Assembly: GCF_964194025.1 (NCBI RefSeq)
Contig: NC_134472.1
Location: forward strand, 67,456,001 to 67,520,000
DNA length: 64,000 nt
Reading direction: 5' to 3'
DNA from: Convolutriloba macropyga
Taxonomy: Eukaryota
A model generated the notes under the pieces. It was not told the origin of the DNA and searched no databases. It saw only the letters and a list, made by a program, of their open reading frames with translations. Every line of letters starts with the position of its first letter. Position 1 is the first letter of the stretch. The position numbers and the translations under genes are program-made. Positions 10,828 through 32,551 of this stretch are shown here, one piece after another.

Positions 10828-10853
10828 GCAATTAAATTTAATTATGCACACTA

Positions 10854-11446: not shown

Positions 11447-11584
11447 CTAAAAGAAGGAAAGAAATGAGAAAAATTAGGTGCTATTATAATTACTAACACC
11501 CTATGTAAATATAATACGATTGAACACCTTCCAGATGCCTATTAACCCAATACGAATTTTTATACAACAACTAACAATTTTGTT

Positions 11585-14500
11585 TTATGAGATTTGTTTC
11601 GGCTTCAAACAGATAAAGTCAGTAATATAGTCGCCGGCGAATTCGTCCTTGTATTTGAGGACGACTCTTTTGTTAGAGGTATCGTAAAGAAAGTGATTGG
11701 GTGGGTAATTTGAGAAATCAAAATGACTTAATACTGACTGAGGCTTCTGCGATAACTCTGTATAAAAATCTTCGCTTTTTATCGCATAAAGGAGACTATC
11801 TGTATCGCTGTAAAGAAGGCGACAATTAAAGTTGGGGCGCATGACATTGTAATGGAATGAGTACATGTGGAATTTTGCAAGATCTAATATAGTCGCTCCC
11901 ACAATAGTGGGAGTGTTCCAATAAATGGACTTCGGCCGTGTGGTCAAGGCTGCTAAATTCTCCCCAAAGATCATATAGCGATCAAACTCAAATCTGGATA
12001 TTATCTTCAGCGCATGCTCGGCATCTCGTGAGATTGTTATTTTACTTCTGCGTGTTTTCGATTCGCAGTTTTTACTATAAACTGCATTATTCATCAGTTT
12101 ATAAAAGTTCTCTTCAAACTTGTTTGACGCAACTTGCCGCTTTTCACTATTTAGTGTAATGTATGGCGACAGCCAGTTTTCTTGTCGAAATTGAAGCACT
12201 CTGTGAACTTTCCTGATTACCAAGCCGAGTTGGACATAGAGTTTCAGCAGTTTGTAGTGGAGCACGTATCTCTCTTTATCAAAGAACGTTTGCAGGAGTT
12301 TCTTTACTTTGGAAGATGGGAGATTGTGTTGTTCTTTTAATTCGATCTGGTAATCGCTCAACCACTCATCTTCAACCACGTCTTTTGTGGGCGCCAACGG
12401 AAAATCGCGATGCTCATCATGAAGGCTCGGCGGGTAAGAGATATCGACCTCTACAAAGTATCCAATGCTAACGTCATCGGCGGTGTCCAAAATCTCTTGA
12501 AGTTGAATATCTGCGTTGAACGCAAAGTCGGCGAGCGGTAGTTTCTCTAATTGCATTACGCCACCATAAAGGTTATTAGCGTCGACACAGAAACCAAAAC
12601 AGGATTCCTCCGTGCTATCGTGGTTGGGAATATAGGAGTTATTTGCAGTGAAGCGCCGACTTTCAAAGACAGATGTGACTCCACCGCGAATTGCGGGTTC
12701 AATCATGTCCAAGTGTTCGCGCTCAGTCAGTAACTCGACATTGGCTTTGCAGATTCTAAGTGATGCTTCTTTAGCCATATTGGGTAGAGTGAAGAAGTGC
12801 ATACAGGTCAGTTTATACGTATCGAAACTCAACTGTCGATGGAATTCGCAAACACATGCGAGTAGTGCACAGTCGAGCTTCAAGTATGAGTCATGATAAT
12901 CCTGCAGTGTTCCACATTCCAGAATTTCCCACATCCTGCGTGCATGTTGTAAATTAGTCTCCGTTACCTTCACTGCCCCTCCGTCCAGAGTGTTACCCCA
13001 CTTGCTCAGTGGTGGGAGACTGGTGTCACTGAACTTGGACCGACCAGTCACATAAGAGTAAGGGTAGTAGCTTTTCTGTTTAAGTAGCTGAAGGTTAGCA
13101 TCAGATAATGTAGAAAACATTGCCCTCATTATTTCGAAACGGTCATCGGGTAAAATTTCAACAAGTTTCTCTAAAGAACTGTTCATCATCTTGAAGGAGT
13201 CTATGAATCGAAGATATTCATAAACTTTCACTGTTTTTCCCTTTTCCGTTACGAAAGTGTCAATAAGCACACCAAATGTCATTGATATGTATTTTTCGTT
13301 GGTGGCTGGTATGATGCTGATGGTTGTGGTTGGCTCGCAGTTTTTCAGTGCCAAGCAAATGTGATGTAAGTCATAATTTTGAATATTATGACCTACAACA
13401 GGGGTGAAATTGATATTTCGTCTCAAGCGATTGCATTTCTCATGTGCCCATCCCAAGAATTTACCACTGTAGTGGCAATGGTCCAGGTCAATTGTGTTCT
13501 CTGGATCTTCCGTTTCTGAAAACGATTTTTCACAAATCCAACAGTGCGTAGCGTTAGACTTTCCCAAGTTTCGTCTATCGCTTTTGAAGAAAGGGTGCTT
13601 CCTTTTCTGCTGATAAATATCTCTGGCTAGTTTGTGAAGCATTTTGACAAAATTTGTCATGCAAGCAGGAGAACTGTCTACATGATGAAAGATTGGCTTT
13701 GATGAGTGGTGATCTATCACTGTTAGCGCAAAGCCACACGGTTCATGTATCTCCTTGACCTGTGTAAAGGCTTTATCACTTGGTCCCTTGCAAGAAGACA
13801 CGGGTCGTAAGAAAGACTCGAAGTCAAAATAGATAACAAGATGGACAAACCATGTAGCAGCCAAGTTCGTGAATTTGTATGAGTTGTTCTCACTTGAAGG
13901 CATATGAATAACAGCAGGTGCATTTTTGCAACAGTTATTGAGATGTAGGTTGTAACTTTCAAGTCCTTCTCGACAAATCCAAAAACAGTTTCGACAAATT
14001 TTGTAGGAGAATCTGTAATCAAGTCCTGGCACGTAGCAAACAACCTTCACCAGGTTTGTAATGAGGACGTAGTGATGACGGCCACAGTCGTACAGCAAAA
14101 GTGAATCCATTACAAAATCTGAGCTGTATGACGAAATTTTTAGAGGGAAAAACTGGCCTTTGTCGCATCCAAACACGTTTAACTGAACGTTGTTGAGTGT
14201 TACAAATTGAGGAATGTCTGCAAAGCCCATGGGCATAGTAAGATTGCCCAGAGGTTGATGCAGTCCTGGTTGATTATATGTAGTTGGTGAAGTTTTGTCG
14301 GTTTGATAGTTTCGATCAATTCTATCTAAACTTATCTGATGATACATTTGATAAGCGGCCACAAAACAATACCTGAAGCAATCTCGATCTTCGTGGTTCC
14401 TAACGTTGAGCAATCCTCTGCAGTTGGCAATTTTTGACGGCAACGCGATGTATGATGAACCAAGAATTGGTCTGAAACGTGCGAATTTGACGTCAACTTT

Positions 14501-14785
14501 GAGAACTTTTTCGAGTGTCCAACCACTCCCCAATGAGTTGAATGTTGTCAATACGCTCATCATCTTCTCCACCATTTGCCAATACGCTTCATCCGACAGT
14601 CCGTTTGCATAGACAGGAGTCATCAGAGAGTTTGCGTATATTTCAAAACGGTCATCTTCTGGCATATCTGGCTCATCATGCACAACTTTGACAAGCCGCA
14701 ATTTTGCACACAGTTGAACTTTTTGAGGACCCTGGGTCAACTGCTCACTTATTAGAGTGTCTATTTTGGGTTTTTGTATCCGCAT
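11585..14785 (-). CDS. Protein-primed family B DNA polymerase (pPolB), main body, 1066 aa
   Basis: GSGW and GSSYI.LP N-terminal motifs; exonuclease motifs YFDFES and HNIQNYD; endonuclease VII-like insert CWIC...DHCHYSGKFLGWAHEKCN; RFIDSFKMM; polymerase motifs DANNLYG, KLMNNAVYSK and YSDTDS. Confidence 0.97.
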   Translation of the reverse strand: MRIQKPKIDTLISEQLTQGPQKVQLCAKLRLVKVVHDEPDMPEDDRFEIYANSLMTPVYANGLSDEAYWQMVEKMMSVLTTFNSLGSGWTLEKVLKVDVKFARFRPILGSSYIALPSKIANCRGLLNVRNHEDRDCFRYCFVAAYQMYHQISLDRIDRNYQTDKTSPTTYNQPGLHQPLGNLTMPMGFADIPQFVTLNNVQLNVFGCDKGQFFPLKISSYSSDFVMDSLLLYDCGRHHYVLITNLVKVVCYVPGLDYRFSYKICRNCFWICREGLESYNLHLNNCCKNAPAVIHMPSSENNSYKFTNLAATWFVHLVIYFDFESFLRPVSSCKGPSDKAFTQVKEIHEPCGFALTVIDHHSSKPIFHHVDSSPACMTNFVKMLHKLARDIYQQKRKHPFFKSDRRNLGKSNATHCWICEKSFSETEDPENTIDLDHCHYSGKFLGWAHEKCNRLRRNINFTPVVGHNIQNYDLHHICLALKNCEPTTTISIIPATNEKYISMTFGVLIDTFVTEKGKTVKVYEYLRFIDSFKMMNSSLEKLVEILPDDRFEIMRAMFSTLSDANLQLLKQKSYYPYSYVTGRSKFSDTSLPPLSKWGNTLDGGAVKVTETNLQHARRMWEILECGTLQDYHDSYLKLDCALLACVCEFHRQLSFDTYKLTCMHFFTLPNMAKEASLRICKANVELLTEREHLDMIEPAIRGGVTSVFESRRFTANNSYIPNHDSTEESCFGFCVDANNLYGGVMQLEKLPLADFAFNADIQLQEILDTADDVSIGYFVEVDISYPPSLHDEHRDFPLAPTKDVVEDEWLSDYQIELKEQHNLPSSKVKKLLQTFFDKERYVLHYKLLKLYVQLGLVIRKVHRVLQFRQENWLSPYITLNSEKRQVASNKFEENFYKLMNNAVYSKNCESKTRRSKITISRDAEHALKIISRFEFDRYMIFGENLAALTTRPKSIYWNTPTIVGATILDLAKFHMYSFHYNVMRPNFNCRLLYSDTDSLLYAIKSEDFYTELSQKPQSVLSHFDFSNYPPNHFLYDTSNKRVVLKYKDEFAGDYITDFICLKPKQIS

Positions 14786-15165
14786 AAATTTTCGAGATCA
14801 TTGGACTCTTCGGCCGCTGTTGACTCGAACGATCTCAGTACTCCATGGAATGCACTTTCCAACGGAGTGTCTCGAGGCTGAATTTGTTCACCTAGGACGG
14901 GTAAGTGATAAACGGAAGTCATATGATGTACGTAAAGATGGCAATCGTTGAATCCGAGTAGGCAGTTTTGACAGCAATTGGTGAATCGTTGGTGTGCAGT
15001 TTTCATGTGTTCTTCGAGCAAAGAAATCTTCCGACAAGTAAATTCGCATAATGAGCATTGATATACGGGTAAACCAATCTCATCAGGATGGAATTTATGC
15101 TCATGCCTGGAGCGATTTCCTTTTGTACTCAGAATAGAATCACAATAACGACACTTGAAACCCAT
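14761..15165 (-). CDS. C2H2 zinc-finger ORF; likely N-terminus of pPolB in a shifted frame
   Basis: CRYC..HEHKFH, CSLC..HMKTAH and CQNC..HMTSVYH, then ESAFHGVLRSF. Overlaps the pPolB ORF, which is in the -1 frame. Confidence 0.8.
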   Translation of the reverse strand: MGFKCRYCDSILSTKGNRSRHEHKFHPDEIGLPVYQCSLCEFTCRKISLLEEHMKTAHQRFTNCCQNCLLGFNDCHLYVHHMTSVYHLPVLGEQIQPRDTPLESAFHGVLRSFESTAAEESNDLENLCGYKNPK

Positions 15166-15558
15166 TTTTGAATTGTCTAACTTTAGTAAGAACGAATTGT
15201 TAAACTCGAGTACGAACAGTTGAGCTAGAGAAACGAATGAACAAGAAATGGCTTCTCGGGTTTACAGTATTAGAGACTACAGTACTGCATAGACGCCAAA
15301 TTCGAAGTTTTGAAATGCTGTTTTCTGATTGGTCGGTTTTGGCGCATACCTTTATTTCGAAATTTTGTTAATTTTGAGAGAAAAAAGATTTGTTTTCAAC
15401 TCTCCATTGCTTTTGTATGCCAAAATATACCACCACAGGGAACCCTACCGAGTATTGCTGATCATCGTTTGTGTCAAAAAACTTTTTTTGAAAACCTGGA
15501 AAAACATGCTAATATTCAAAATTGTAATAAAAAGCGCTATTTTAAACATTTTCAATTA

Positions 15559-18500
15559 CTATTTTATTTCTGCGTCTTTTCGATTCGCAGTTTTTACCAT
15601 AAACTGCATTTTTCATCAGTTTATAAAAGTTCTCTTCAAACTTGTTTGACGCAACTTGCCGCTTTTCACTATTTAGTGTAATGTATGGCGACAGCCAGTT
15701 TTCTTGTCGAAATTGAAGCACTCTGTGAACTTTCCTGATTACCAAGCCGAGTTGGACATAGAGTTTCAGCAGTTTGTAGTGGAGCACGTATCTCTCTTTA
15801 TCAAAGAACGTTTGCAGGAGTTTCTTTACTTTGGAAGACGGGAGATTGTGTTGTTCTTTTAATTCGATCTGGTAATCGCTCAACCACTCATCTTCAACCA
15901 CGTCTTTTGTGGGCGCCAACGGAAAATCGCGATGCTCATCATGAAGGCTCGGCGGGTAAGAGATATCGACCTCTACAAAGTATCCAATGCTAGCGTCATC
16001 GGCGGTGTCCAAAATCTCTTGAAGTTGAATATCTGCGTTGAACGCAAAGTCGGCGAGCGGTAGTTTCTCTAATTGCATTACGCCACCATAAAGGTTATTA
16101 GCGTCGACACAGAAACCAAAACAGGATTCCTCCGTGCTATCGTGGTTGGGAATATAGGAGTTATTTGCAGTGAAGCGCCGACTTTCAAAGACAGATGTGA
16201 CTCCACCGCGAATTGCGGGTTCAATCATGTCCAAGTGTTCGCGCTCAGTCAGTAACTCGACATTGGCTTTGCAGATTCTAAGTGATGCTTCTTTAGCCAT
16301 ATTGGGTAGAGTGAAGAAGTGCATACAGTCCAGTTTATACGTATCGAAACTCAACTGTCAATGGAATTCGCAAACACATGCGAGTAGTGCACAGTCGAGC
16401 TTCAAGTATGAGTCATGATAATCCTGCAGTGTTCCACATTCCAGAATTTCCCACATCCTGCGTGCATGTTGTAAATTAGTCTCCGTTACCTTCACTGCCC
16501 CTCCGTCCAGAGTGTTACCCCACTTGCTCAGTGGTGGGAGACTGGTGTCACTGTACTTGGACCGACCAGTCACATAAGAGTAAGGGTAGTAGCCTTTCTG
16601 TTTAAGTAGCTGAAGGTTAGCATCAGATAATGTAGAAAACATTGCCCTCATTATTGCCCCCATTAGAAAACATTGCCCCCAAGAATTTACCACTGTAGTG
16701 GCAATGGTCCAGGTCAATTGTGTTCTCTGGATCTTCCGTTTCTGAAAACGATTTTTCACAAATCCAACAGTGCGTAGCGTTAGACTTTCCCAAGTTTCGT
16801 CTATCGCCTTTGAAGAAAGGGTGCTTGCTTTTCTGCTGATAAATATCTCTGGCTAGTTTGTGAAGCATTTTGACAAAATTTGTCATGCAAGCAGGAGAAC
16901 TGTCTACATGATGAAAGATTGGCTTTGATGAGTGGTGATCTATCATTGTTAGCGCAAAGCCACACGGTTCATGTATCTCCTTGACCTGTGTAAAGGCTTT
17001 ATCACTTGGTCCCTTGCAAGAAGACACGGGTCGTAAGAAAGACTCGAAGTCAAAATAGATAACAAGAGGGACAAACCATGTAGCAGCCAAGTTCGTGAAT
17101 TTGTATGAGTTGTTCTCACTTGAAGGCATATGAATAACAGCAGGTGCATTTTTGCAACAATTATTGAGATGTAGGTTGTAACTTTCAAGTCCTTCTCCAC
17201 AAATCTAAAAACAGTTTCGACAAATTTTGTAGGAGAATCTGTAATCAAGTCCTGGCACGTAGCAAACAACCTTCACCAGGTTTGTAATGAGGACGTAGTG
17301 ATGACGGCCACAGTCGTACAGCAAAAGTAAATCCATTACAAAATCTGAGCTGTATGACAAAAATTTTAGAGGGAAAAACTGGCCGTTGTCGTATCCAAAC
17401 ACGTTTAACTGAACGTTGTTTAGTGTTACAAATTGAGGAATGTCTGCAAAGCCCATGGGCATAGTAAAATTGCCCAGAGGTTGATGCAGTCCTGGTTGAT
17501 TGTCTGTAGTTGGTGAAGTTTTGTCGGTTTGATAGTTTCGATCAATTCTATCTAAACTTACGATGATACATGTGATAAGCGGCCACAAAACAATAGCTGA
17601 AGCAATCTCGATCTTCGTGGTTCCTAACGTTGAGCAATCCTCTGCAGTTGGCAATTTTTGACGGCAACGCGATGTATGATGAACCAAGAATTGGTCTGAA
17701 ACGTGCGAATTTGACGTCAACTTTGAGAAATTTTTCGAGTGTCCAACCACTCCCCAAAGAGTTGAATGTTGTCAATACGCTCATCATCTTCTCCACCATT
17801 TGCCAATACGCTTCATCCGACAGTCCGTTTGCATAGACAGGAGTCATCAGAGAGTTTGCGTATATTTCAAAACGGTCATCTTCTGGCATATCTGGCTCAT
17901 CATGCACAACTTTGACAAGCCGCAATTTTGCACACAGTTGAACTTTTTGAGGACCCTGGGTCAACTGCTCACTTATTAGAGTGTCTATTTTGGGTTTTTG
18001 TATCCGCATAAATTTTCGAGATCATTGGACTCTTCGGCCGCTGTTGACTCGAACGATCTCAGTACTCCATGGAATGCACTTTCCAACGGAGTGTCTCGAG
18101 GCTGAATTTGTTCACCTAGGACGGGTAAGTGATAAACGGAAGTCATATGATGTACGTAAAGATGGCAATCGTTGAATCCGAGTAGGCAGTTTTGACAGCA
18201 ATTGGTGAATCGTTGGTGTGCAGTTTTCATGTGTTCTTCGAGCAAAGAAATCTTCCGACAAGTAAATTCGCATAATGAGCATTGATATACGGGTAAACCA
18301 ATCTCATCAGGATGGAATTTATGCTCATGCCTGGAGCGATTTCCTTTTGTACTCAGAATAGAATCACAATAACGATACTGGAAACCCATTTTTGAATTGT
18401 CTAACTTTAGTAAGAACGAATTGTTAAACTCGAGTACGAACAGTTGAGCTAGAGAAACGAATGAACAAGAAATGGCTTCTCGGGTTTACAGTATTAGAGA

Positions 18501-18783
18501 TTACAGTACTGCATAGATGCCAAATTCGAAGTTTTGAAATGCTGTTTTCTGATTGGTCGGTTTTGGCGCATACCTTTATTTCGAAATTTTGTTAATTTTA
18601 AGAGAAAAAAGATGTGTTTTCAACTCTCCATTGCTTTCGTATGCCAAAATATACCACCACAGGGAACCCTACCGAGTATTGCTGATCATCGTTTGTGTCA
18701 AAAAACTTTTTTTGAGAACCTGAAAAAACATGCTTATATTCAAAATTGTAATAAAAAGCGCTATTTTATGCATTTTCAATTAC
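15559..18783 (-). pseudogene. Second, tandemly duplicated and 3'-truncated copy of ZnF-pPolB with its upstream region
   Basis: Near-identical to 12038-15558. Fragments at 17985-18389, 17548-18009, 17205-17750, 16623-17129, 16358-16759 and 15542-16354. Has a ~320-bp internal deletion near 16655 and ends just after NAVYGKNCES. Confidence 0.95.
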
Positions 18784-20097
18784 GGATGGTTAGAGTTGTC
18801 CTACGTTCTTAAGTGTGATGAGCAAAAATGCTCCCCGTGCCGAAAAACATAGGACCCATATAAAAAAATTGCTCAAAAATAAACAGAAAAAAAGTTTGTT
18901 TTTCTGTCAATCAAGTCTTTAATTAACAATTACATGACAATTACATGACATAAACATGTGTCTTTTTTCTGAGGCCTTTTTTGATGACAGCTGTTATGAG
19001 ATAAATTTACACTGAGGGCCCAATAAGTCCAAAAATTTAAAGAAAACCGATCTAACATCTTTCCTTAGGGTACTTCATATGCTAATTAATGCCAGATGTT
19101 AATGTGACATTAATTGCCAGATGTTTCGAAAATCGATGAAGGAGCCGTTTTTTGATGATGATGCTTATGACCAATAATGTCGGGCATCAAGCAGTGAGTA
19201 CAAAACCGTTGCAAAAATTTGAATTTTTTTTCAGTAATTAGTAATTAGGTTAATTAGCCCTTAATTAGTCGCTAATTAGAGGCTAATTATCTCCATAACG
19301 GATGAGTAAAATTTGACGAGTGTGATGAGATGTTTTGTACTTTTGAGTATGCTGAGTCTTACTGAACAATCAGTTTCATCCCAAGTATTTTTGGAACCTT
19401 CTTTTTTGGGGTCAAAAATAAGAGGTCATGTGTTAAAAAAATTTTTTTTTTTGATTTTTTTTCGTTTTTTTTAAACTAACATGCTCTTTTTTTTCAATTG
19501 ATCCCCAAGTAACAAATGAGAGTTGATTCTAGTGTAAGCTGAAGAGGGCATCTACTGAATTAAGTGTCAAAATTTGACGTTTGAAATGCATTTTTGCGAA
19601 ATATTTTCTTTGATTATTTTTTATTTTTTGAACAGTTCTTCGACTTATGAATTGAATTTGGAATTCAATCCATGCTACAGCTGTGGCATTGAGTTAACAT
19701 GTCATTAGCGTCAATACCGCATACTCTCACATATGGCTATTTCTCTAAACTTTATGTTTAATATATATAATAATAACAAAAATTTTGCAGATTGGGAAAA
19801 GTATTTCTGGATATAATATTGAAAAATCTCACCACGTCATAGTAGTTGTAATAATTGATTGTTTGTTAGGAAACAAATGTTTACGTCATAATGAAAATCT
19901 TTTCTGATCATGTTCGAACTTGATCAGTAGCAATGTTTTAATTTCTTTGACTCAGCAGATTTAAAGCTATAAAACAGATTTAAAAAGTTAAATTCAGCTT
20001 TTAAAAAGTTGAAATCACACATTCTTGAAACAAAATCATTTTAGCATCTCACTTTATAAAAGAGTTTTGTGGTGATCCAATAAGTTTAGTTTTCAAG

Positions 20098-20793
20098 TTA
20101 ATCAAATAACTCCATTAGAGTATTCTCAGGTAGCCGTTTCTTTGTTGCATTGCAAATCTTTGGCGTGTCTGTGACACCAAAAACACATGCTGGTTCTGGT
20201 GTTTGAAATTGTGTAGCTGACAGTAACGTTGTATCAAACTGGTTGTCACTGAACAGAGCCGTAGAATTGTTCTTGTGAATTCCCGCAAAGAGAGATGGAC
20301 TAGATGTCGGTGTCAAACTGGGACTCGGATCAACTGCTGGTGTTACTGGCAAGCTGGCTGAATCCAATTGCGATTGATTTTCTGGGGAGCAAGGTGATGA
20401 CTTTATGCCCCACATGTCAGCTAAGTTTTCGCAAGCCTGATAAGCCCCTAGCTGGTTTTCAAACAGAGGCACACATTCGCAATCGTAACGAAACAAAATT
20501 CGTTTAACGTCGTCAGGTAATGACTCCATGCCAAGACGTTGAAATGCTGGCGAAGTTTTTGGAGGTAAATGTCCTCCTGATGTAATAAGACTGCAATCTG
20601 CTGGTTCTGTCTTCTCTGGTAAAGAAGCAATTGCGTTAATGAAAAACTTGGGTATCAAGCAGTGCTGGTAAGTTTGCCAAACATCGCCTTGTCTTTTCTG
20701 TTGAATAAGCACAACAAAGTTTTCGAACACTGTCTGATAAACCAATGTTCGCTCCAAGGAAATTACAGATTCAGCAAGTATTTGAACGGACAT
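20098..20793 (-). CDS. Polinton accessory protein of unknown function with S/P/T-rich C-terminus
   Basis: Uninterrupted ORF (to 20889 from a non-ATG start; first ATG gives MSVQIL...) in AT-rich DNA. No motif recognised. Confidence 0.6.
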   Translation of the reverse strand: MSVQILAESVISLERTLVYQTVFENFVVLIQQKRQGDVWQTYQHCLIPKFFINAIASLPEKTEPADCSLITSGGHLPPKTSPAFQRLGMESLPDDVKRILFRYDCECVPLFENQLGAYQACENLADMWGIKSSPCSPENQSQLDSASLPVTPAVDPSPSLTPTSSPSLFAGIHKNNSTALFSDNQFDTTLLSATQFQTPEPACVFGVTDTPKICNATKKRLPENTLMELFD

Positions 20794-21191
20794 ATTTTTT
20801 GTACAAATTTTGAGAAAGAAATTAAAACCAATTTGATAGAAGACTGTTGGTAGGTGTTTGTCTGGTAACGAACTGTTGAAAGAAAGCAAAGTGCACTGAA
20901 CGCAAGGTTTAAAGAAAATGAATAACTATTTTTAAAGTAATATTGCACAACGTGTAATTCAACAAATTATATCTGGGGTCAAATATGGTTTTAATTTTGG
21001 TAGTGTATGTGCTCTGATATATGCTCTAAATTTTGTTATTATACATGGGTCGATACACTTTATAATGTGTACTAACTCAGTTCTTATCCAGAGCGTATTT
21101 TATTATTAGCATTTCATTGTACGCTGGTGCATGTTTATTCTTATCAGAATATCATTACTGCTGTAGGTTCACTTGTGCTTCTAATTATATC

Positions 21192-21492
21192 ACACACCCA
21201 GGGTCACATCTGTTCCAAGTTATAAACATATGGTCCGCATATAATTCCAATAAACAGTGTACACTGCACTGCTGGTCCAAATACACACCTAGGGTCACAT
21301 CTGTTTTCTCTATAGAACCAAAACATGTGGTCCGCATATAATATCAATAAACAGTGTACACTGCACTGCTTGTTCAAATACCCACCCAGGGTGGGTCACA
21401 TTTGTGTTCTCAAAACATATGGTACGCATATAATTCCAATAAAAAGTGTACAGTGCACTGCTCGGTCCAAGTACACACCTAGGTTCACATAT
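21192..21492. repeat. About 3.3 tandem copies of a ~93-bp unit in the divergent intergenic region
   Basis: Unit acacacc(c/t)agggtcacat...catatggtccgcatataattccaataaacagtgtacactgcactgct..tccaaat starts near 21192, 21283, 21380 and 21473. Confidence 0.9.
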
Positions 21493-21551
21493 GTTTTTTT
21501 GTCTTATCTAAGGTCACAGCTGAAATTAATTATGCAATATGTGAACAACAG

Positions 21552-21588
21552 ACAGACTCAAGTACGCCATAGGCGTACTTGAGCCTGT
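21552..21588. other. Stem-loop/palindrome (17-bp arms with one mismatch, 3-nt loop)
   Basis: acagactcaagtacgcc-ata-ggcgtacttgagcctgt. Confidence 0.9.
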
Positions 21589-21713
21589 ATTCACAAATCA
21601 TTTGGATTTAATTAGGCAATTTGACGACACTTGTTTAAACCCAACTTGCCGCCCCATTGAGTTGGAGTTTTACACATTATAACACTTGAAAGTAATAAAA
21701 CAAGTTGCACACT

Positions 21714-22031
21714 ATGCCTTTCACGTCCACTAAAGACACAGAGTTTGGAGATTGTTATTTCGATATTTCCAAAACTGATAAGCGCTTAATCAGAGCAACG
21801 CTGAAAACCTATGAAAGGACAGGGACATATGTATTTCTGAAATTGTTCAAAAAAGCAACAGACGATTACGAGTTTGAACAGAGAATTTCTCTAACTCTTG
21901 GAGAGTTTGAAAATTTGGTCAGCTCAGCTAGCTAAATACAGAACTCAGTGGCTGACCAGCTGTCAACAACAAAACCACCACTAGCGAAGAAACCAAAAAT
22001 TCAAAAAGAAGTTGCCAACAACGATGGTTGA
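21714..22031 (+). pseudogene. PC4/p15-like single-stranded DNA-binding protein with an in-frame stop at 21933-21935
   Basis: The pattern YFDIS....RLIRATLKTY..TGTYVFLKLFKK....QRISLTLGEFENL resembles the PC4 fold. The same frame continues past the TAA to an NLS-like PPLAKKPK. Confidence 0.55.
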
Positions 22032-22716
22032 GGCGATGTTTGAGCGTTCTCCAAATTACTTTAAACAATTTCAGAAACAGTTTGAATTTCTCATTCTTGA
22101 AGAAAAACTTAGCTTTTCTATTGGAAATTTTTGTGCAGTGTGTGCACATTTTGATTCCGAATTTTGCAATTTAGTAAACAGTCATTATCACGTTCTGATT
22201 GATACAACTACTTTTGAAAACGAAACAGTGAAACGATATCAGAGCTTTCCTGTGCCTTGTGTTTATACAGCTTTCAAATTCTTGTTTTGGACTGCACCAA
22301 ACTTGGAGACTAATGGAGACGTTTTTACAAAGCTCAAATTGGCAATCGAATTCAACGGTTCGGGAGAAAAAACCGATTCACAGTCAGTGCGCAAACGACT
22401 GCCAGCTTTTGCTAACCACAACAATTTATCGAAAAGCAGCTCTGCAAAACAAACAAATGTCAATCTCAAACCGAGTGCCAAGATGTCAGTAGTTGCTCAA
22501 AAAACTATCTACAATGCCCGGCCTCCATCGAAACAAGTTCAAACTGATTTTGTTAATAGTGAAACTTTACGAAGAGTTGAAACAATTTTGTATGGTCCTC
22601 ATTCTGGCGCTTTTTGTCAAATTATGGATATTTTTTTGAGTGGATATGGAAAATTGAATATTGATTCTGATTTATTGAGTGTTCGCTTTGTGTATGAAGA
22701 AAAAGTAAAGTTTTGA
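22024..22716 (+). CDS. Accessory protein with Cys cluster and HUH-like HYHVL motif
   Basis: Intact ORF (track 22012-22716, ATG at 22024). Contains CAVC...C...SHYHVLID and a downstream VYTAFK. Confidence 0.65.
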   Translation: MVEAMFERSPNYFKQFQKQFEFLILEEKLSFSIGNFCAVCAHFDSEFCNLVNSHYHVLIDTTTFENETVKRYQSFPVPCVYTAFKFLFWTAPNLETNGDVFTKLKLAIEFNGSGEKTDSQSVRKRLPAFANHNNLSKSSSAKQTNVNLKPSAKMSVVAQKTIYNARPPSKQVQTDFVNSETLRRVETILYGPHSGAFCQIMDIFLSGYGKLNIDSDLLSVRFVYEEKVKF

Positions 22717-22747
22717 AAAAAAAAATAAATTTCTCAAGTTAGTAAGG

Positions 22748-23182
22748 TTAGAACATCATATGAAAAGCAAAACGAATCAATTCATTATCGCTAATATTTA
22801 CAAGTTTTTGAGCATTAAAAACAAAATGAGCAATATAAATAAAAAAAAGTCCACAAAGTTTAGAGTTTGCTCTTTGAATTGGTTGATTCTCCAAGAGTTG
22901 ATAGATGTTGTGATTGCTGCCAACGGAAACGATTCTTTGATATAGGTGTTTGTACGATGAAATGGGCTGACCAAGGGGATCGGCAAACAAAAGTTGATTG
23001 TTTTTTCTGCATAATAGTAACCAGTGGCTGCCAATATTTTCAGCAGTTGCTGCATTAACAATAAGGAAGCTGTTTCTGTTCATTTTTTCCGGAAAGTTGT
23101 TGGCCGCAAACACACCACGGAATTTATATTTAAGAGTTTTGCAACTTTGGATTAAACCATTAATATCATCTTCATCCATCAT
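22748..23182 (-). CDS. Adenain-like cysteine maturation protease (PRO)
   Basis: FRGVFAAN, GSHWLLL (His), FADPLG (Asp), QPIQ..NSKLCGLF (Gln/Cys). The ORF is intact. Confidence 0.93.
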   Translation of the reverse strand: MMDEDDINGLIQSCKTLKYKFRGVFAANNFPEKMNRNSFLIVNAATAENIGSHWLLLCRKNNQLLFADPLGQPISSYKHLYQRIVSVGSNHNIYQLLENQPIQRANSKLCGLFFIYIAHFVFNAQKLVNISDNELIRFAFHMMF

Positions 23183-24488
23183 TAATTTGTCAGAATGTGA
23201 TTCTTTGATACTCTTCTTGCACTATCAACAAATATTGTGCTAGCTTTTTCGCCAATAATGAATATTTCTATATTGTTCGGTAAGGCCGCAGAAAATTTCA
23301 ACTCAATAGAAATTGACGAATTTGTAAGCTCAGGATGAATAAAATCGTGGGAGGCTTGTTGGGTGCTGGTCAAATCAAAAACCATTATGAAATGGTTTGG
23401 GTAATCTGTCAAACTTATTCCATGACCATTGTCGATGTAAGCTAAATCGGATATTGTGTTAAAGTAAAGACGTTTGTCATCACTTGTTGATATCGGACTG
23501 TCTGCCACAGGTAAACCGTTTCGATAAATTTAAATCTGCTCAAGGTCGAATTTGCGGAAATTAAATGGATTTTGTCTGTTGTTACCAAGAAACGCTTCGT
23601 TAGTGTTCAGACAAATTGCTAGTCTACGAATCGGTTCTCTGGCAAAAATATCTTCTTGTTTCCAACTGTGGAGACCCGTTGACGCCAGAAACGTTTTTGT
23701 TAGAGTCTCCAGGTAAGGATACGAAGCTGGACTTGTTAATAAAGTTTTTTCAATAGCCGATACAACATCATCGTTCAATGTCATCTTGCACACATACAAA
23801 TTAGCTTCGACAATTTTTACTTTGTAGTGCTTGGCAGCATCGTCAAACATTATAACAAAATCATCTATTGATCGTCTAAATGCAATGCGAAGTGTCACAC
23901 CACTTAGCAAATGTCTGTCACAGGTGAAAAAGTCGACTGCAACTTTACCGGAGAATGTGCACTCAGCTGATTGCTTCACTAAGGCTTTCCTTCTGTTCAC
24001 TTCCGCAGTTGACAGTGCTCCTGGAGTTTCTTCGTAGTAGTAACCCTGACATTCCAGCCAGGTGTTTTTTGCATCTTTGTTATGTGAAAATTCTGTTTCA
24101 ATAAAACTTTTATGAGCATAGTTTCCGTTAGCGTTTGAAATTTTTAGTCCATTAGCAGACACTGTACAGTCAGAGAAGAGTGAATGTAACACATTATTGC
24201 AAAAATAGGGAGCATCTGTCTTCGTAACATCTGTTGCTGCTCCTGCTTCATATCTCAAATCAGCTTTTGATGACTGGACAACTTTACATTTTACTTCCAA
24301 GAAAATTTTCTGTAAGTCAATAAAATTATTTCGGTCACCGGCGACTTCAAATTCTAACATGGGTCCATTTGGACTGTAGACTGGGCCCAACTTTTGACAA
24401 AAACTACCATCGAAATTTACTAAAAGAGAAGGTTTTTCGAATAAATCCAAAGAACTGTGAGAACTGATGGTAACAAATTAGCGATCAT
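23182..24488 (-). pseudogene. Major capsid protein (double jelly-roll, PY/hexon-like), disrupted
   Basis: SSLDLFE, GPMLEFEV..D.NNFIDL, NNVLHSLF, NPFNF, FIMVFDLT, ISIELKF. In-frame TAA at 23530-23532. The likely ATG at 24488 is out of frame by one base near 24463. Confidence 0.9.
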
Positions 24489-24900
24489 CGTTCACTCTGG
24501 CAAAAAAATCTGACCGACTTCTTTTTGGAGCTCTGTGCGTTGAAATGGTTTTTTTGCGTTTGTTGATCGCTTTCTGTGGCTTGACTCGACTTGACTTCCT
24601 CCGACGTGAAGTATTTCGTCGAGATCCCCCAGTCTGTTTTTTAACAGTTTTTGCGATTGTATTTTTAAACGCCTGTTTAGGAGATTTTTTGCTTCCGACT
24701 ACATCGAAAATCTCTGGAACACTTTGTTTCAAAAGCTCTTTCCCGATACACTTCGCTGTAGACAAAATAAAACGACGTGCTAAAGGCAGCGCAACACGTC
24801 CAATGCCTGCAGCTAAGGCTCCAAAACCACTTCCTCTTTGACGATAATGTCCAGAGAAGTGAGGCAAAGACGTTGCTTGATTCGCATAACAAGAATCCAT
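24478..24900 (-). CDS. Basic virion core / membrane-penetration-like protein
   Basis: RQRGSGFGALAAGIGRVALPLARRFIL amphipathic segment, QTGG, and an R/K-rich tail. Lies between the mCP and MCP genes, as in other Polintons. Confidence 0.75.
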   Translation of the reverse strand: MDSCYANQATSLPHFSGHYRQRGSGFGALAAGIGRVALPLARRFILSTAKCIGKELLKQSVPEIFDVVGSKKSPKQAFKNTIAKTVKKQTGGSRRNTSRRRKSSRVKPQKAINKRKKTISTHRAPKRSRSDFFARVNDDR

Positions 24901-24901
24901 T

Positions 24902-25775
24902 TTAGGAGGAAAAATTTTTGAATTGTAGTGTTAGAATAACTTTTCCAGTTCCCGAAAAGTGAACTAATTGGCCTGTTTCCGTTCTCAGTTCAATTGAAAT
25001 CGATTGAATTGTGTTAGTTAGGAGCTTCTTATAGTCTAAATTTGTAAAAACTATCCGATGAGTTGGCTCAAGCTCACAAACACTACCGTTTTTCAGACGT
25101 TGTTTTGAATCAATGACTCGCAAAAGAGGAGCCATAGTGTCACCAACGTATTGATATTCAATTTTGTTAGTGTAGATGAAAATTAGATGCTTTCCAGCAC
25201 AAAGATCAGCTGGGAACTCCCCATAATAAGCTTTCGTATCATCACTTTTCATAAACCTGTTCGCATTGGGAATCATTTTGTACCCAAGATGTATTCCATT
25301 ACCGTCAGGAATACCCTTAAATCGGAATTTCCTCGCTGGGAAATGTAATTCCCTCATACTTGCCAAATAAAATTTCATATTTTCCAGAGCTCTTCAACTC
25401 TCTGAAAGAAAAATTGGGCAGTCCAATTGTTCGCTTAATCGTAGCAAGAAGTTGTGCCACTGTATCAAAGGTTCCTGGCATAAAACTAAATTGTTGTCCA
25501 CTATAAGGTCTAGAAATAACATTAGCTCCCGAAGACATCTTTTGGGAATCTTCATAGTCTTTTAAGTTGTACACAATTAGATTTCCGTTTACTATGTTTT
25601 CTATTTTTGTTGGGAATATGATTTCACTTAACGCCACTCTCCAATCACCTGCAAGTTGAATTTCGTCATTAAAAAAATTTCGAAATGCTGCAAGTGTGTT
25701 TGAATCAAATATTTCCATTGAAGCGGATGAAACAACGTGAACTGTAAACTCGTCTTCAAACCGGTTGTTGGACAT
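24902..25775 (-). pseudogene. Minor capsid protein (penton/PX), frameshifted near 25330
   Basis: N-terminal FTVHVVSSAS...NTLAAF...LAGDWRVALSEIIFP; C-terminal IFIYTN.IEYQYVGDT.APLLRVI and ISIELRTETGQLV.F...KVILTLQF. Confidence 0.9.
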
Positions 25776-26672
25776 TTTCAACGAGAGGGAGCCTGACAAG
25801 TTGTAATTCTGGTTGATAAAATTTTCCTTGATTTGGTACTTTGTCTGTGTCGACTAAGGAGTATGTTGGTGGGCTTAATGTCGGTATTCCCGTTATTTCA
25901 AAGACTTCGTCTGTGAACGATTGCTTGTAACTTTTCCTGAATGCTTTATCTTTTTTAACTATTCTCACAAAGTCTCCAATGTAAAACTTGGGCTTCTGAT
26001 TTGAGCTTGTTTGGACTGTCAATGAAACTGGTCGTGGCACATCTTTTTTTGTAACTTTGTTGGGAGCAATTTTAGTTACTTGATTGACTCTTGAATTGAT
26101 TATTTTCACAAATTGGTCTAATTGGTCAATGTAGCTATAGGTCCACTTTTCTTCGAGATACCGATGAATTATCTTTTTGAGAGATCTAATGTTCCTCTCT
26201 GCAAAAGCTGACTTTTTTTCACTGAAGGTACTATATAACTGAATTCCGCGTTTGTTGCACAATTGTTTGAATTCTCCCAGAAATTCTGTGCCATCGTCAG
26301 CCCATACTTTTTCGGGCTGTTTGTTTTTGATCATCTTTTTGAATGCTTCAGCTGCTTCTGTTGCGTACTTTGTTTTTAATGGTTCCACTCGTAAATATCT
26401 TGACAAACAATCAACCGCTACTAGGAGATACTTGATGTTGCGGTTATATTTTGCTAATTTATCAACGTTGCCAAATCTAGAGACCAAATTTCGTTAATGT
26501 CTTTTACAAAAACTTTAAGCCTTGGAAATTTTAATCGAATTGACCGGTACTTTGTGAAAGACGGCTTTGTCTCCAAATAGGACAGGACTTTGCCTATAGG
26601 GAGCTTGCTTTGAGTCTGTAGTCGTTTTATGCTTCCATACGAAGCTGGTCCTTTTAAATACAACTGATCCAA
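25756..26672 (-). pseudogene. Retroviral-like DDE integrase, frameshifted near 26470
   Basis: GPASYGS, WSLDLA (D), LLVAVDCLSRY, WADDGTEF (D), AERNIRSLK (E), GDFVRI, GKFYQPELQLV. Confidence 0.93.
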
Positions 26673-26682
26673 TTTTTTTACT

Positions 26683-27431
26683 TCAGGAAAAGAAAGACCA
26701 CATCTTCTGACTGGTCTCTTCTTTGTCTGGCGTTTGGTCCGTTTCTTCTTTATATTTTTTTCGGGTTGGTTTTAAGCCACTGAGTCGTTCTCCAGTAGAG
26801 GAGAACTCTTGTTGACTGGGTTGTTCTCTACTTGGGAAAAATTCTTGTTCACTTTCAGACGAGGCTTCCAAGATTTGCTTGGCATGTGTATTTGCAACAA
26901 GATGAGGTGAGATATTAAGAGCAAATAAAATTTTTGAGTAGTTTTCAATGTCATTTTTTTAGTTGGTTGCTGTAGATTGTACAGAAATGTTGAAGCTTTG
27001 ATGCCCAGTGTTTCTTTATTAACGTGAAGAACGTCATTCGACTCTATGGTGACTGTTTCAGATTGGTTAATCAAGTCAAGTATGATTTTTGATCTTTTGA
27101 TTTGGTTTTTATTCATAACTTCTAGCTCTATCATTATAGAGGTGAAATCGTCGCTTTTTCTTTGTTTTTTCACTACCGGTTCAATCTCGCTGTCTTCGCT
27201 CATGGGTTCTGTTTTCTCCTCTTCTACTGTTTCAATCATCAGTTTTTTTGCAGTCTCAACTGGTTCAAATGCTTTCTCTGGTTTTTCCATTGAGTTGCAC
27301 TGGTTTCTTTGCAAAAGAGACAGCTGTGCAGCTTTTTGTTTATAAAGGGGATTGTCCAAAACTTCTTTTTTTACCGGTTGATGTGAAGCAAACATTCGTT
27401 TTGGAATTAAGATGAATTCTTCGGTGAGCAT
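26683..27431 (-). pseudogene. Conserved Polinton ORF of unknown function between the small ORF and integrase, frameshifted near 26950
   Basis: ORFs 26772-27458 and 26683-26871 join across an A-run. The ATG overlaps the upstream stop (TAATG). Confidence 0.65.
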
Positions 27432-30008
27432 TATGATTTTGTCAAATATCGATAACAAGCGAAACCAACAATTTTGAACAAATCTGTTTCTCTAGCAAAA
27501 AGTTGCCTCTTTTCTTTCAAACTTGTTTGTCTAGACAATAGCTTTCTGAATGATTTTTCATAACCTTCTACAACACTTTTTCTTATTGGAACATTACCAT
27601 TGACAATGTTGAGCAAACATTCGCAAAGGAATTTAATGAATTTATTTTGAGCTCTCTCGATCTTCTCTTTTAGTTTTGTATCCGATATGTCTAGCAGCCG
27701 CCCCAGCATACAAACTTCTTTCTCTCTCATCGCTCAAATTTGTTGAAGCTTTGATGCTCAGTGTTTCTTTATTAACGTGAAGAACGTCGTTCGAGTCTAT
27801 GGTGACTGTTTCAGATTGGTTAATCAAGTCAAGTATGATTTTTGATCTTTTGATTTGGTTTTTATTCAAAACTTCTAGCTCTATCATTATAGAGGTGAAA
27901 TCGTCGCTTTTTCTTTGTTTTTTTTTTACTACCGGTTCAATCTCGCTGTCTTCGCTCATGGGTTCTGTTTTCTCCTCTTCTACTGTTTCAATCATCAGTT
28001 TTTTTGCAGCCTCAACTGGTTCGAATAATTTCTCTGGTTTTTCCATTGAGTTGCACTGGTTTCTTTGCAAAAGAGACAGCTGTGCAGCTTTTTGTTTATA
28101 AAGGGGATTGTCCAAAACTTCTTTTTTTACCGGTTGATGTGAAGCAAACATTCGTTTTGGAATTAAGATGATTTCTTCGGTGAGCATTATGATTTTGTCA
28201 AATATCGATAACAAGCGAAACCAACAATTTTGACCAAATCTGTTTCTCTAGCAAAAAGTTGCCTCTGTTCTTTCAAACTTGTTTGTCTAGACAATAGCTT
28301 TCTGAATGATTTTTCATAACCTTCTACAACACTTTTTCTTATTGGAACATTACCATTGACAATGTTGAGCAAACTTTCGCAAAGGAATTTAATGAATTTA
28401 TTTGGAGCTCTCTCGATCTTCTCTTTTAGTTTTGTATCCGATATGTCTAGCAGCCGCCCCAGCATACAAACTTCTTTCTCTCTCATCGCTCAAATTTGTT
28501 GAAGCTTTGATGCCCAGTGTTTCTTTATTAACGTGAAGAACGTCGTTCGAGTCTATGGTGACTGTTTCAGATTGGTTAATCAAGTCAAGTATGATTTTTG
28601 ATCTTTTGATTTGGTTTTTATTCAAAACTTCTAGCTCTATCATTATAGAGGTGAAATCGTCGCTTTTTCTTTGTTTTTTTTTACTACCGGTTCAATCTCG
28701 CTGTCTTCGCTCATGGGTTCTGTTTTCTCCTCTTCTACTGTTTCAATCATCAGTTTTTTTGCAGCCTCAACTGGTTCGAATAATTTCTCTGGTTTTTCCA
28801 TTGAGTTGCACTGGTTTCTTTGCAAAAGAGACAGCTGTGCAGCTTTTTGTTTATAAAGGGGATTGTCCAAAACTTCTTTTTTTACCGGTTGATGTGAAGC
28901 AAACATTCGTTTTGGAATTAAGATGATTTCTTCGGTGAGCATTATGATTTTGTCAAATATCGATAACAAGCGAAACCAACAATTTTGACCAAATCTGTTT
29001 CTCTAGCAAAAAGTTGCCTCTGTTCTTTCAAACTTGTTTGTCTAGACAATAGCTTTCTGAATGATTTTTCATAACCTTCTACAACACTTTTTCTTATTGG
29101 AACATTACCATTGACAATGTTGAGCAAACATTCGCAAAGGAATTTAATGAATTTATTTTGAGCTCTCTCGATCTTCTCTTTTAGTTTTGTATCCGATATG
29201 TCTAGCAGCCGCCCCAGCATACAAACTTCTTTCTCTCTCATCGCTCAAATTTGTTGAAGCTTTGATGCCCAGTGTTTCTTTATTAACGTGAAGAACGTCG
29301 TTCGAGTCTATGGTGACTGTTTCAGATTGGTTAATCAAGTCAAGTATGATTTTTGATCTTTTGATTTGGTTTTTATTCAAAACTTCTAGCTCTATCATTA
29401 TAGAGGTGAAATCGTCGCTTTTTCTTTGTTTTTTTTTACTACCGGTTCAATCTCGCTGTCTTCGCTCATGGGTTCTGTTTTCTCCTCTTCTACTGTTTCA
29501 ATCATCAGTTTTTTTGCAGCCTCAACTGGTTCGAATAATTTCTCTGGTTTTTCCATTGAGTTGCACTGGTTTCTTTGCAAAAGAGACAGCTGTGCAGCTT
29601 TTTGTTTATAAAGGGGATTGTCCAAAACTTCTTTTTTTACCGGTTGATGTGAAGCAAACATTCGTTTTGGAATTAAGATGATTTCTTCGGTGAGCATTAT
29701 GATTTTGTCAAATATCGATAACAAGCGAAACCAACAATTTTGACCAAATCTGTTTCTCTAGCAAAAAGTTGCCTCTGTTCTTTCAAACTTGTTTGTCTAG
29801 ACAATAGCTTTCTGAATGATTTTTCATAACCTTCTACAACACTTTTTCTTATTGGAACATTACCATTGACAATGTTGAGCAAACTTTCGCAAAGGAATTT
29901 AATGAATTTATTTGGAGCTCTCTCGATCTTCTCTTTTAGTTTTGTATCCGATATGTCTAGCAGCCGCCCCAGCATACAAACTTCTTTCTCTCTCATCGCT
30001 CAAATTTG
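26987..30008. repeat. Four tandem copies of a 755-756-bp unit
   Basis: The 99-aa ORF recurs at 27431, 28187, 28942 and 29697. Junctions read caaatttgttgaagctttg. Confidence 0.97.
27431..27730 (-). CDS. Small conserved Polinton protein (LCECLLNIVNGNVP), copy 1 of 4
   Basis: The motif F...CEC.LN..NGNVP is typical of the small gene after the ATPase in Polintons. Intact copies also at 28187-28486, 28942-29241 and 29697-29996. Confidence 0.8.
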   Translation of the reverse strand: MREKEVCMLGRLLDISDTKLKEKIERAQNKFIKFLCECLLNIVNGNVPIRKSVVEGYEKSFRKLLSRQTSLKEKRQLFARETDLFKIVGFACYRYLTKS

Positions 30009-30639
30009 TGATAACGGCTTTAGCTGATGGCAGATAAAAAATTGATGGTCCTGAAGGAACAATATTTGAACAGTAGCGCAAGACGTCTGATGTTTTTGGA
30101 TCCAAATCAATTAATAAATGACCAAACGGTTCTTTGGTTGCGAGCTCATAGCTTTCTTTTAAAAATTGTGCATTATTCAACTGTCGACCAATAAAACTAA
30201 TCTGTTGTGTGTCACGGGGTGATTTGAACAATATGATATGTGTTGTGTTTAGATCAATTGTTCTGGACCATCTGCTTTGCTGGAACAAATTGTGTTTAAC
30301 ATAAATTACACTGATGTTTCTATATCGCCCTGCGGTTGCTAATTTGGAAAATTCTTTGTCATTAAAGATTTCTTCACATGAATCATCGAACACAAGAAGG
30401 CAGTTCTCTAACTCTGAAATGAGCTCAAAATTGGAGATTTTTTAAAAATGTATGTTCAGTTTCTTCTCTAACGATTGGAATTTTGGCTGATCATGCTGAT
30501 AAAAATAATAAATTGTTTGAAACTCTGGGAAAAATGTGCCAATTAATAACATTTTGAAAATGAGCTCAGTTTTCCCGCAGCAAGACGGCCCGCAAACAGC
30601 CATGAACAACCGGTCATTGGTAGAAATAACTTTATTCAT
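29908..30639 (-). pseudogene. A32/FtsK-like genome-packaging ATPase with an in-frame stop at 30442-30444
   Basis: Walker A GPSCCGKT, Walker B LLVFDD, ATAGRYRNISVIYVKHNLF, RTIDLNTTHIILFKSPRD, PFGHLLIDL. Confidence 0.93.
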
Positions 30640-30910
30640 AACTTTGGATTTGTAGGAGCGTATCCAACTGTACAAGAAAGAAGTGAAAACCAAATGTGGA
30701 TTCTTCACAGTCAAGACTGAAAAAAACCAACTTGGTGAGAGATTCAGTTATAAGAAAAATTATTATAATGATTTGTGTACAGTATACAACCTCTGATCGA
30801 GGCAATCTCGAATTGCAAAACCTCCAAGATTGTCTTTCTTGGTGCTCGGCGTCAAAAACCAAGTCAGTTATGCCTCCACCCGAATCTAATTGATCTTCGG
30901 TTTGACTCAT
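30632..30910 (-). CDS. Small transmembrane protein, C-terminus probably frameshifted
   Basis: W.FC....PRSEVVY.TQIIIIIFLI hydrophobic helix. Lies immediately upstream of the ATPase. Confidence 0.65.
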   Translation of the reverse strand: MSQTEDQLDSGGGITDLVFDAEHQERQSWRFCNSRLPRSEVVYCTQIIIIIFLITESLTKLVFFSLDCEESTFGFHFFLVQLDTLLQIQSYE

Positions 30911-30963
30911 TGTGAAATAAAATTGTTCAAAAAATGAATTGCTTTCCAGGAATTTTTACATAA

Positions 30964-31218
30964 TTATTTAACTATAAAAAATTCATAAGAAATATATCCA
31001 GAGTCTTCGTCTCCTTGTTTGTAAGTGATTGCATAGTTTGCATTCATCGAATCTTGTTTATCTCTAAAAACAATTGACTCTACATTGTTCTCTTTAATTA
31101 GCTGCTTGATGTCATCGGGAAGAGTCTCATCGTCCAGAGACATCAGAACTGGTACTGCACGCTTGGGCGTAGGTAAAGGGGTTAGTTTCAACCTTTTCAT
31201 TTTCTCTTGTAAAGACAT
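30964..31218 (-). CDS. Hypothetical Polinton protein
   Basis: ATG-initiated 84-aa ORF in the tightly packed minus-strand gene block. Confidence 0.5.
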   Translation of the reverse strand: MSLQEKMKRLKLTPLPTPKRAVPVLMSLDDETLPDDIKQLIKENNVESIVFRDKQDSMNANYAITYKQGDEDSGYISYEFFIVK

Positions 31219-31456
31219 GGTACAATTGAAAGTACTCCAGTAGAGAAATATACGTTTTGAAAGCTTCTATTTCAGCACCAGCACACACAATCTGCTGTTT
31301 TCTCAAAACTGTTTGGCCTCTTGTGTCAATTTTTTCTTCCTTGATAAGATTAACCGTTAACTGATTTTCAGGCGTTATGCAACTGTAAACTGTCAAATTT
31401 GGAGACAAATTCACTTGTAGTAGAGACGGAGCTGGTTTCTCTAACCGACGATTCAT
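31127..31456 (-). CDS. Hypothetical Polinton protein
   Basis: ATG-initiated 109-aa ORF overlapping both neighbours. Confidence 0.5.
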   Translation of the reverse strand: MNRRLEKPAPSLLQVNLSPNLTVYSCITPENQLTVNLIKEEKIDTRGQTVLRKQQIVCAGAEIEAFKTYISLLEYFQLYHVFTRENEKVETNPFTYAQACSTSSDVSGR

Positions 31457-31952
31457 TCGTCAGCCACTGGTAAAAGAGTTTTGCCCTCTTATTGGCACAA
31501 TGCTTGGTTCTCTGTCGTTTTGGGCAACTCAATGCATGTAATTTACAAACTGGTGTCTCCCGATACAACTTCAAGTGTTCAATTTTTGGGCAGAACAAAG
31601 TTTCCAAGTTGATAACGTTCCTCTGTGACAGCTGTCGTAAAGTTTCCGTTTTTTCTAATCCTTTTGCGTAAAAATCAGAAAAGGGAAATCGAAGAACTAT
31701 ACTTTGAAAAATCTGTTGCAAATAATGATAAGGGTACTCTCCTGTCTCCCACGAGAGACCATGAAGCAAATTAGATACCCACAGGAAAGATCTTTGCTCA
31801 CTCGAACAAAGTATGTTAAATGATTTTGGAGGTAAAAACGAAATTATATCGTTGTAATTTTCGGTAGATACCGCAAGTTCTTTTATTATAAATCCAGATT
31901 TTTTACTTCGAAAGCCTTCAAAATCAAGAACAACCGCTCCGGATTTCAACAT
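31368..31952 (-). CDS. DnaQ/DEDD-like 3'-5' exonuclease-fold protein
   Basis: VVLDFEGF...FIIKELAV, HGLSWETG, YAKGLEK, INLE..CPK and C..H...HCA. The ORF is intact. Confidence 0.75.
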   Translation of the reverse strand: MLKSGAVVLDFEGFRSKKSGFIIKELAVSTENYNDIISFLPPKSFNILCSSEQRSFLWVSNLLHGLSWETGEYPYHYLQQIFQSIVLRFPFSDFYAKGLEKTETLRQLSQRNVINLETLFCPKIEHLKLYRETPVCKLHALSCPKRQRTKHCANKRAKLFYQWLTNESSVRETSSVSTTSEFVSKFDSLQLHNA

Positions 31953-32399
31953 TCCAGCAAATTGAATAAACTATTTTTGAAAGATTTTACGTATAAACAA
32001 AAAGCAATTCCAGTCACATGACCAAGGTACTCATTTGTCACTGAACAAGGTAATACGTAAGAATAGCCTGGACCCTTTTCACTATATTCAACCGGAAGCG
32101 TCGTGGAGTATGGCATGTAATCTCAAAATTTTTAAATTTTTGAAATATTTGACTAACGAAGAATTATCAATACCAATCAAACCTCCGTACGGCCGCAACT
32201 TCAACGCAATATCCAAATCAAGATCCGGATCCAAATGCAAACAAGTGGCTAAAAAGTATAAAAATCGTTTACCGTATTGTGAATATTCTTTTTCGATTTC
32301 CTTGTAAGTTTCGTGAATACTTTTCAAATCAAGCGTTGCTATAGTTGCCATTTGATCTATGCACACATTCTCCCAATAATGATCAATTTTTGCTAACAA
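31946..32399 (-). pseudogene. HD-motif protein, possibly phospholipase A2-like, frameshifted near 32090
   Basis: PYGGLIG...LHAILHDASG, then in a shifted frame EYSEKGPGYSYVLPC...GHVTGIAFCLYVK...LLEC*, overlapping the next ATG. Confidence 0.5.
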
Positions 32400-32551
32400 C
32401 TAACCAAAACCACTTAATCACACGTCTAAATATCACATAATAAGCCCCTCCCCTCTATTAGGGTAATGAGACTACTTTTTACATGTAGCGTTAAATTCAA
32501 ACGACCAGAAAGAACTAGCAAGAACGGCGGAATAGAACAATCCAAACGGCA

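Follow-up and report, generated by a model that had tools for sequence, protein, structure and literature searches.

A predicted Rep-type gene family with a conserved His/Cys set and no conserved tyrosine nucleophile in a Polinton group of Convolutriloba macropyga

The closest known system to the gene described here is RepB of plasmid pMV158 (PF01719; PDB 3dkx, 8amu), which, according to portions of two publications (PMC5030251, PMC9943647), works without a helicase and cuts one strand at an invariant sequence located in the loop of a hairpin, with Tyr99 as the nucleophile and Asp42 as the fourth metal ligand. Here we analyzed a 64,000-nt stretch of the genome of Convolutriloba macropyga (contig NC_134472.1, positions 67,456,001 to 67,520,000; hereafter the window, in whose numbering all positions are given), in which an earlier note had proposed that a Polinton/Maverick element carries a captured rolling-circle module. 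We found that the gene in question, the open reading frame ORF2 (22024-22716, plus strand, 230 aa), belongs together with its upstream neighbor ORF1 to the fixed gene content of a large Polinton group, and that its product probably has an HUH/Rep-type domain with near-invariant histidines and cysteines and no conserved catalytic tyrosine.

Rep and NS1 nuclease domains of circular Rep-encoding single-stranded (CRESS) DNA viruses and parvoviruses (6h8o, 7kii, 8h56, 9pqf, 1m55) have a conserved motif-III Tyr/Lys, a superfamily 3 (SF3) helicase and a fixed nick sequence, all of which are missing from ORF2. The origin-binding domains of polyomavirus large T and papillomavirus E1 (1tbd, 4gdf, 1ksy, 1r9w) are fused to SF3 helicases, whereas ORF2 stands alone and keeps three histidines and two cysteines (His3-Cys2), so that its likeness to them would be one of working and not of membership. 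HUH genes also occur, as presumably here, in small double-jelly-roll DNA viruses: parts of the respective reports describe a mriyavirus HUH protein with all catalytic motifs, including Yx2-3K, in viruses that have no polymerase (PMC11253617), HUH endonucleases in the Polinton-like virus (PLV) clusters VC102 and VC218 (10.64898/2026.06.19.733378), and Rep-like nickases in one further polisuvirus group (10.64898/2026.10.13.758929). In contrast to the mriyavirus protein, ORF2 resides in an animal Polinton with an integrase and a pPolB-type polymerase, and its tyrosine is not conserved.

Animal Polintons, Mavericks and adintoviruses, as far as they are covered in parts of PMC8502044, PMC11071296 and PMC11131425, have the same termini, target-site duplication and core genes as the element studied here. 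The text of PMC8502044 (with one supplement file), PMC11071296, PMC11296320 and PMC11131425, figure gene maps excepted, mentions no Rep/HUH-fold or PC4 accessory gene in animal Polintons. We also found no published description of a Tyr-less HUH gene in these elements, in a search that did not cover figures, subscription papers and bioRxiv supplements, which may bear on novelty. HUH genes being already known in related viruses, what is new is a family of HUH-like proteins, Tyr-less and with His3-Cys2, that is a fixed part of a group of animal Polintons. To our knowledge, only models exist of how Polintons exit the chromosome and begin to replicate, and roles have been assigned to few of their accessory genes; a fixed gene derived from Rep/HUH proteins would tie this group to the replication toolkit of single-stranded DNA viruses and plasmids.

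Searching the 1.18-Gb genome yielded at least 150 scored ORF2 matches with 71-100% identity, as well as further subfamilies and distant families. In 21/22 distant loci ORF2 lies tail to tail with the protease gene, and in 21/22 ORF1 is found upstream. In addition, the nonsynonymous rate was below the synonymous rate (dN < dS) in all 24 comparisons, indicating purifying selection. ORF1 and ORF2 thus form a pair of core genes that is fixed across a large group of Polintons. The pair is not a recent capture; the earlier note had suggested a captured module. The gene context is known from this genome, records of Logan, NCBI and JGI contain some of the distant ORF2 homologues, and no related loci were found in the IMG/VR and JGI metagenomes.

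ORF2 contains both of the motifs that had been read in it, SHYHVLID and YTAFK. Only five columns of the homologue alignment are at least 90% conserved: H42 (95/97), H54 (93/97), H56 (92/96), C48 and C79, the two cysteines being conserved as highly as the three histidines; C40 follows with 52/96. The HxH motif falls on a predicted strand (55-60), and H42, H54 and H56 align with H39, H55 and H57 of RepB (E 6e-4), giving ORF2 the His-hydrophobic-His strand motif and the third, upstream metal ligand typical of Reps. These histidines are predicted to form the metal triad of an HUH fold, and C48, located in the loop that holds the fourth ligand Asp42 in RepB, and/or C79 may complete a structural zinc site. 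A zinc site would be the simplest reading of the His/Cys set, in agreement with a metal-site alternative raised in the earlier note. Compared with RepB, ORF2 differs in its loop cysteine C48, its second cysteine C79, and F86. Most full-length homologues are 185-250 aa long. The C-terminal domain, modeled within the whole protein and not alone, contained no helicase and gave no clear structural match; with 230 aa and a C-terminal domain of ~50 aa, ORF2 has no SF3 helicase fusion, longer fused forms not having been searched for separately. Foldseek returned no match for ORF2 at E <= 0.001, ORF2 and its alignment matched no family in Pfam and none in PDB sequence searches, and the ESM Atlas held no usable match for the homologue P0001. 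PF01719 had no match over the genome itself, and a prediction of an ORF2 homodimer with zinc, in which the alignment was not used, gave an uncertain fold.

One part of the HUH proposal that is not supported is the catalytic tyrosine. In an extended, low-confidence part of the alignment, F84-K85-F86-L87 pairs with the Y-L-Y-L of Reps, which puts F86 on the tyrosine kept by 47/47 fetched Reps. Among 97 homologues, position 86 is His in 23, Phe in 17, Leu in 17 and Tyr in 13, and position 110 is Tyr in 45 and Phe in 40 of 97. The tyrosine of YTAFK, put forward as the nucleophile, is Y81, which precedes the position of the RepB tyrosine by five residues and is found in 39/98 homologues, as compared with Phe in 46. 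We detected no alignment column with an invariant tyrosine in the ORF2 family, and no conserved catalytic tyrosine in motif III, on the helix that follows strand 4. Because the tyrosine columns are variable, the protein of the window would have no conserved nucleophile under any register; as judged from the alignment, the five His/Cys positions are strongly constrained while no nucleophile appears conserved. One distant protein, P0244, carries Y86 and H89, like RepB. An equivalence of Y110 with the catalytic tyrosine of SIRV1 ORF119 had emerged from a first structure model and was not upheld by a better one. On the ORF2 tree (60 rows, inferred by a quick method with SH-aLRT support and no bootstrap), Y110 occurred in 40/48 rows outside the clade of the window and in none of the 12 rows inside it, all of which have F110.

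The intergenic region upstream of ORF1 contains a hairpin (Table 1), a single copy in the element, whose inner 12 bp are perfect and whose 17 bp include one mismatch. Its existence, as drawn in the earlier note, is beyond chance: the DNA fold of 21500-21720 had a z of -5.08 with 0/200 shuffles equally stable, and 0/300 shuffles of the intergenic region reached a perfect 12-bp arm. The inner 21-nt pattern had 317 exact sites in the genome, as compared with 0 for a control pattern. Among 18 aligned copies, 11/17 pairs were invariant and one pair was changed on both sides. The loop is variable in sequence and length (ATA, GTA, GTT, GCT, GCC, GTGG) and the arms are fixed, the opposite of RepB, in which the nick sequence in the loop is fixed. 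We surveyed 104 loci, allowing up to 2 mismatches, and found the hairpin in 79/83 loci of the window's clade (6 of them picked for having it), in 0/21 sister-subfamily loci, all of which keep ORF2 and most also ORF1, and in 0/11 distant loci that keep ORF2 and were placed on its tree. The hairpin is therefore not co-conserved with the gene, nor is its loop invariant, as that of a cognate origin with a fixed nick sequence would be. Only the subfamily of the window combines Y81 with the hairpin; four other hairpin subfamilies have F81, and Y81 is also found in subfamilies that have no hairpin. The hairpin clade (SH-aLRT 93; 11 loci and P0148) coincides with the F110 clade, which, being one event on one branch, gives no evidence of coupling. 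Within this clade, ORF2 may bind to the palindrome; the palindrome cannot be the ancestral target of the ORF2 family.

The tandem repeat of ~93 bp in ~3.3 copies, taken in the earlier note for iterons, was recovered by Tandem Repeats Finder (TRF). A 72-nt core of the unit lies at 21224, 21321 and 21413, and CAGTGTACACTG is present in 2/3 units. Outside the subfamily of the window this unit was not found; at the same place, other subfamilies have duplications of 75, 83-84, 102, 106, 142 or 179-193 bp, or none. Since the units differ by subfamily or are absent, they do not behave as initiator-binding repeats conserved beside a nick site. The repeated duplication of different units between divergent genes suggests enhancer turnover, and the 93-bp repeats are probably an enhancer-type duplication. 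Beside the hairpin, a conserved block common to the hairpin clade ends in what we take to be a likeness to an E2F site. Hairpin-less subfamilies (L061-L072, L090-L098) share the motifs TCTTATCAGT and AACAGTT upstream of ORF1, which presumably resemble GATA and Myb sites. Rfam had no match within 20800-22800.

Seven elements of three families, followed from end to end, had no match to the polymerase of the window and kept ORF1-ORF2, integrase, capsid, protease and ATPase. Six are ~12.6-14.1 kb long, one is ~23 kb with an internal triplication, and 6/7 have matching target-site duplications; O231, the divergent neighbor of ORF1, has moved to the right end. The four termini that we folded form strong hairpins (z -4.0 to -10.4), as compared with the termini of the window's element, which folded no better than shuffles (z 0.14 for its own end). 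In these families, position 86 of ORF2 is Leu and all 7 rows have Y110, and the retention of ORF2 there offers a small, soluble, directly testable protein together with defined DNA ends.

We consider it rather probable that ORF2 derives from a Rep, has a structural zinc and does not nick, being a DNA-binding helper or regulator beside a single-strand-binding partner and a two-way promoter. With the His3-Cys2 metal site kept and no conserved catalytic tyrosine, ORF2 would bind the DNA of the element without nicking it and assist or regulate replication or transcription, in the manner of the origin-binding domains of polyoma- and papillomaviruses, which do not nick and have lost the His metal site. 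ORF1 would supply PC4-type single-strand binding, and the palindrome and repeats would be cis-sites of a promoter acting leftward on O231 (and on the polymerase side in polymerase-bearing copies) and rightward on ORF1-ORF2. If so, this would be a third independent case, beside the two virus groups, of the fold turned into a DNA-binding module, with a catalytic metal site probably converted into a zinc site. That the protein is not HUH-derived at all, but a small zinc-binding domain of alpha/beta type in which the likeness of the HxH strand to Rep is convergent, is doubtful; the fold and family searches that found no match would fit it, and the register of all three histidines with RepB would not. 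A captured rolling-circle module with an internal Polinton origin, at which ORF2 would nick the hairpin through Y81 with the 93-bp repeats as guiding iterons, seems very improbable. The likely HUH fold with its His motif and the strong conservation of the hairpin speak for it, and no helicase in cis is needed, because RepB has none. However, the coincidence of Y81 and hairpin in one subfamily, the loop being the variable part, the confinement of the repeat unit and the fixation of the genes across the whole Polinton group all stand against it; as tyrosine, hairpin and repeats are not co-conserved, this reading is contradicted at the level of sequence.

We regard as unlikely that ORF2 is a non-canonical nuclease or end-processing enzyme acting on the element termini, with the His triad holding a catalytic metal and the nucleophile being Y110, a semi-conserved residue of the helix that follows the last strand (perhaps of a second subunit), a cysteine or water. 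Such an activity would be most relevant to the polymerase-less, hairpin-ended families, and the window's clade, with F110, may have lost or changed it. The near-invariant histidines, the prevalence of Y110 outside the hairpin clade (including all polymerase-less rows), the retention of ORF2 and ORF1 in the seven polymerase-less elements, and the strong folding of the four termini examined favor this view. However, 8/48 outside rows, on several separate branches, have F, S, L, V or C at position 110, the hairpin clade is successful with F110, the polymerase-less families have Leu at 86, and polymerase-bearing Polintons could copy polymerase-less elements in trans. Moreover, the alignment to SIRV1 ORF119 stops at model residue 92, leaving helix 99-111 without a counterpart there. 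Less likely still is the bolder form, in which the whole group carries a Rep-derived enzyme that processes the ends, its active site being rewired (His3-Cys2, nucleophile off motif III). Such an enzyme would enable Mavericks that have hairpin ends and intact integrase and capsid genes but no polymerase to spread with the help of the host polymerase, by rolling-hairpin replication like that of parvoviruses.

Membership of ORF1 in the PC4 family, proposed in the earlier note, is a lead only. In its favor, ORF1 scored 0.86 (rank 13) against a PC4 cluster of the Atlas, of whose members 44% are PF02229, and a weak hhalign match to the host PC4 exon (3.2%, E 0.014) has the last strand and helix in register; against it, ORF1 had no PC4 match in Pfam. 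Over the genome, PF02229 retrieved only the host PC4 exon above cut-off, and ORF1 showed no profile similarity to O231. ORF1 is conserved and under selection. An in-frame stop limits it to 73 aa in this copy, and it is open over its whole length in the 19 closest other copies fetched. One locus (L058:2474-3484) reads from ORF1 into ORF2 in one frame, which probably reflects decay of that copy and a frameshift by chance.

Table 1. Features of the window, and the polymerase-less elements of the same genome
Feature	Position	Strand	Remarks
Polinton/Maverick host element	10496..32677		AGTAGT...ACTACT ends; ~117-bp terminal inverted repeats; 6-bp target-site duplication GCTGCC
O231 (231 aa)	20098..20793	-	divergent neighbor; left bound of control region
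Intergenic region between divergent genes	20794..21713		putative two-way promoter/control region
Tandem repeat, 3.3 copies of ~93-97-bp unit	21192..21497		TRF: 93-nt consensus, 74% matches, score 336
Palindrome/hairpin	21552..21588		arms 21552-21568 and 21572-21588, 17 nt, 94% complementary; 3-nt loop
Conserved block GACGACAC...CTTGCCGC	21623..21652	+	beside hairpin; common to hairpin clade
ORF1, likely PC4-like	21714..22031	+	strands then helix, basic tail; in-frame TAA 21933-21935
ORF2 residues 1-134, predicted HUH/Rep-type domain	22024..22425	+	near-invariant H42, C48, H54, H56, C79
ORF2 residues 179-230, small conserved domain	22558..22716	+	helix-helix-strand-strand; after ~40-aa disordered linker
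Adenain-type protease gene	22748..23182	-	Peptidase_C5, Pfam E 6.9e-5; fixed neighbor, tail to tail with ORF2
Polymerase-less elements	G000: L117+L135, L118+L147, L121+L137, L122+L139+L140, L125+L141, L126+L143, L129+L145

The Polinton context assumed in the earlier note is borne out by the terminal inverted repeats, AGTAGT ends and 6-bp target-site duplication (Table 1). Its description of ORF1 and ORF2 as the only convincing plus-strand genes also fits the list of open reading frames, since other plus-strand frames of at least 90 aa in the element overlap minus-strand genes. The protease is a Pfam match; polymerase, integrase, capsid and ATPase had no library match and are our tentative labels, read from motifs in the translations. 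Several core genes are broken or duplicated in this copy, and counterparts of intact length occur in other copies. O231 has a conserved N-terminal part of ~130 aa and a Ser/Pro-rich tail, and matched no Pfam family. The polymerase region (11585-18389) is duplicated at 3.2-3.5-kb offsets with 98-99% identity, the second copy being in pieces, and an insert within the polymerase resembles endonuclease VII (Pfam E 3.4e-4, below cut-off). Finally, at 26988-30000 a 755-bp unit with two small genes is repeated four times in tandem (96-99% identical).
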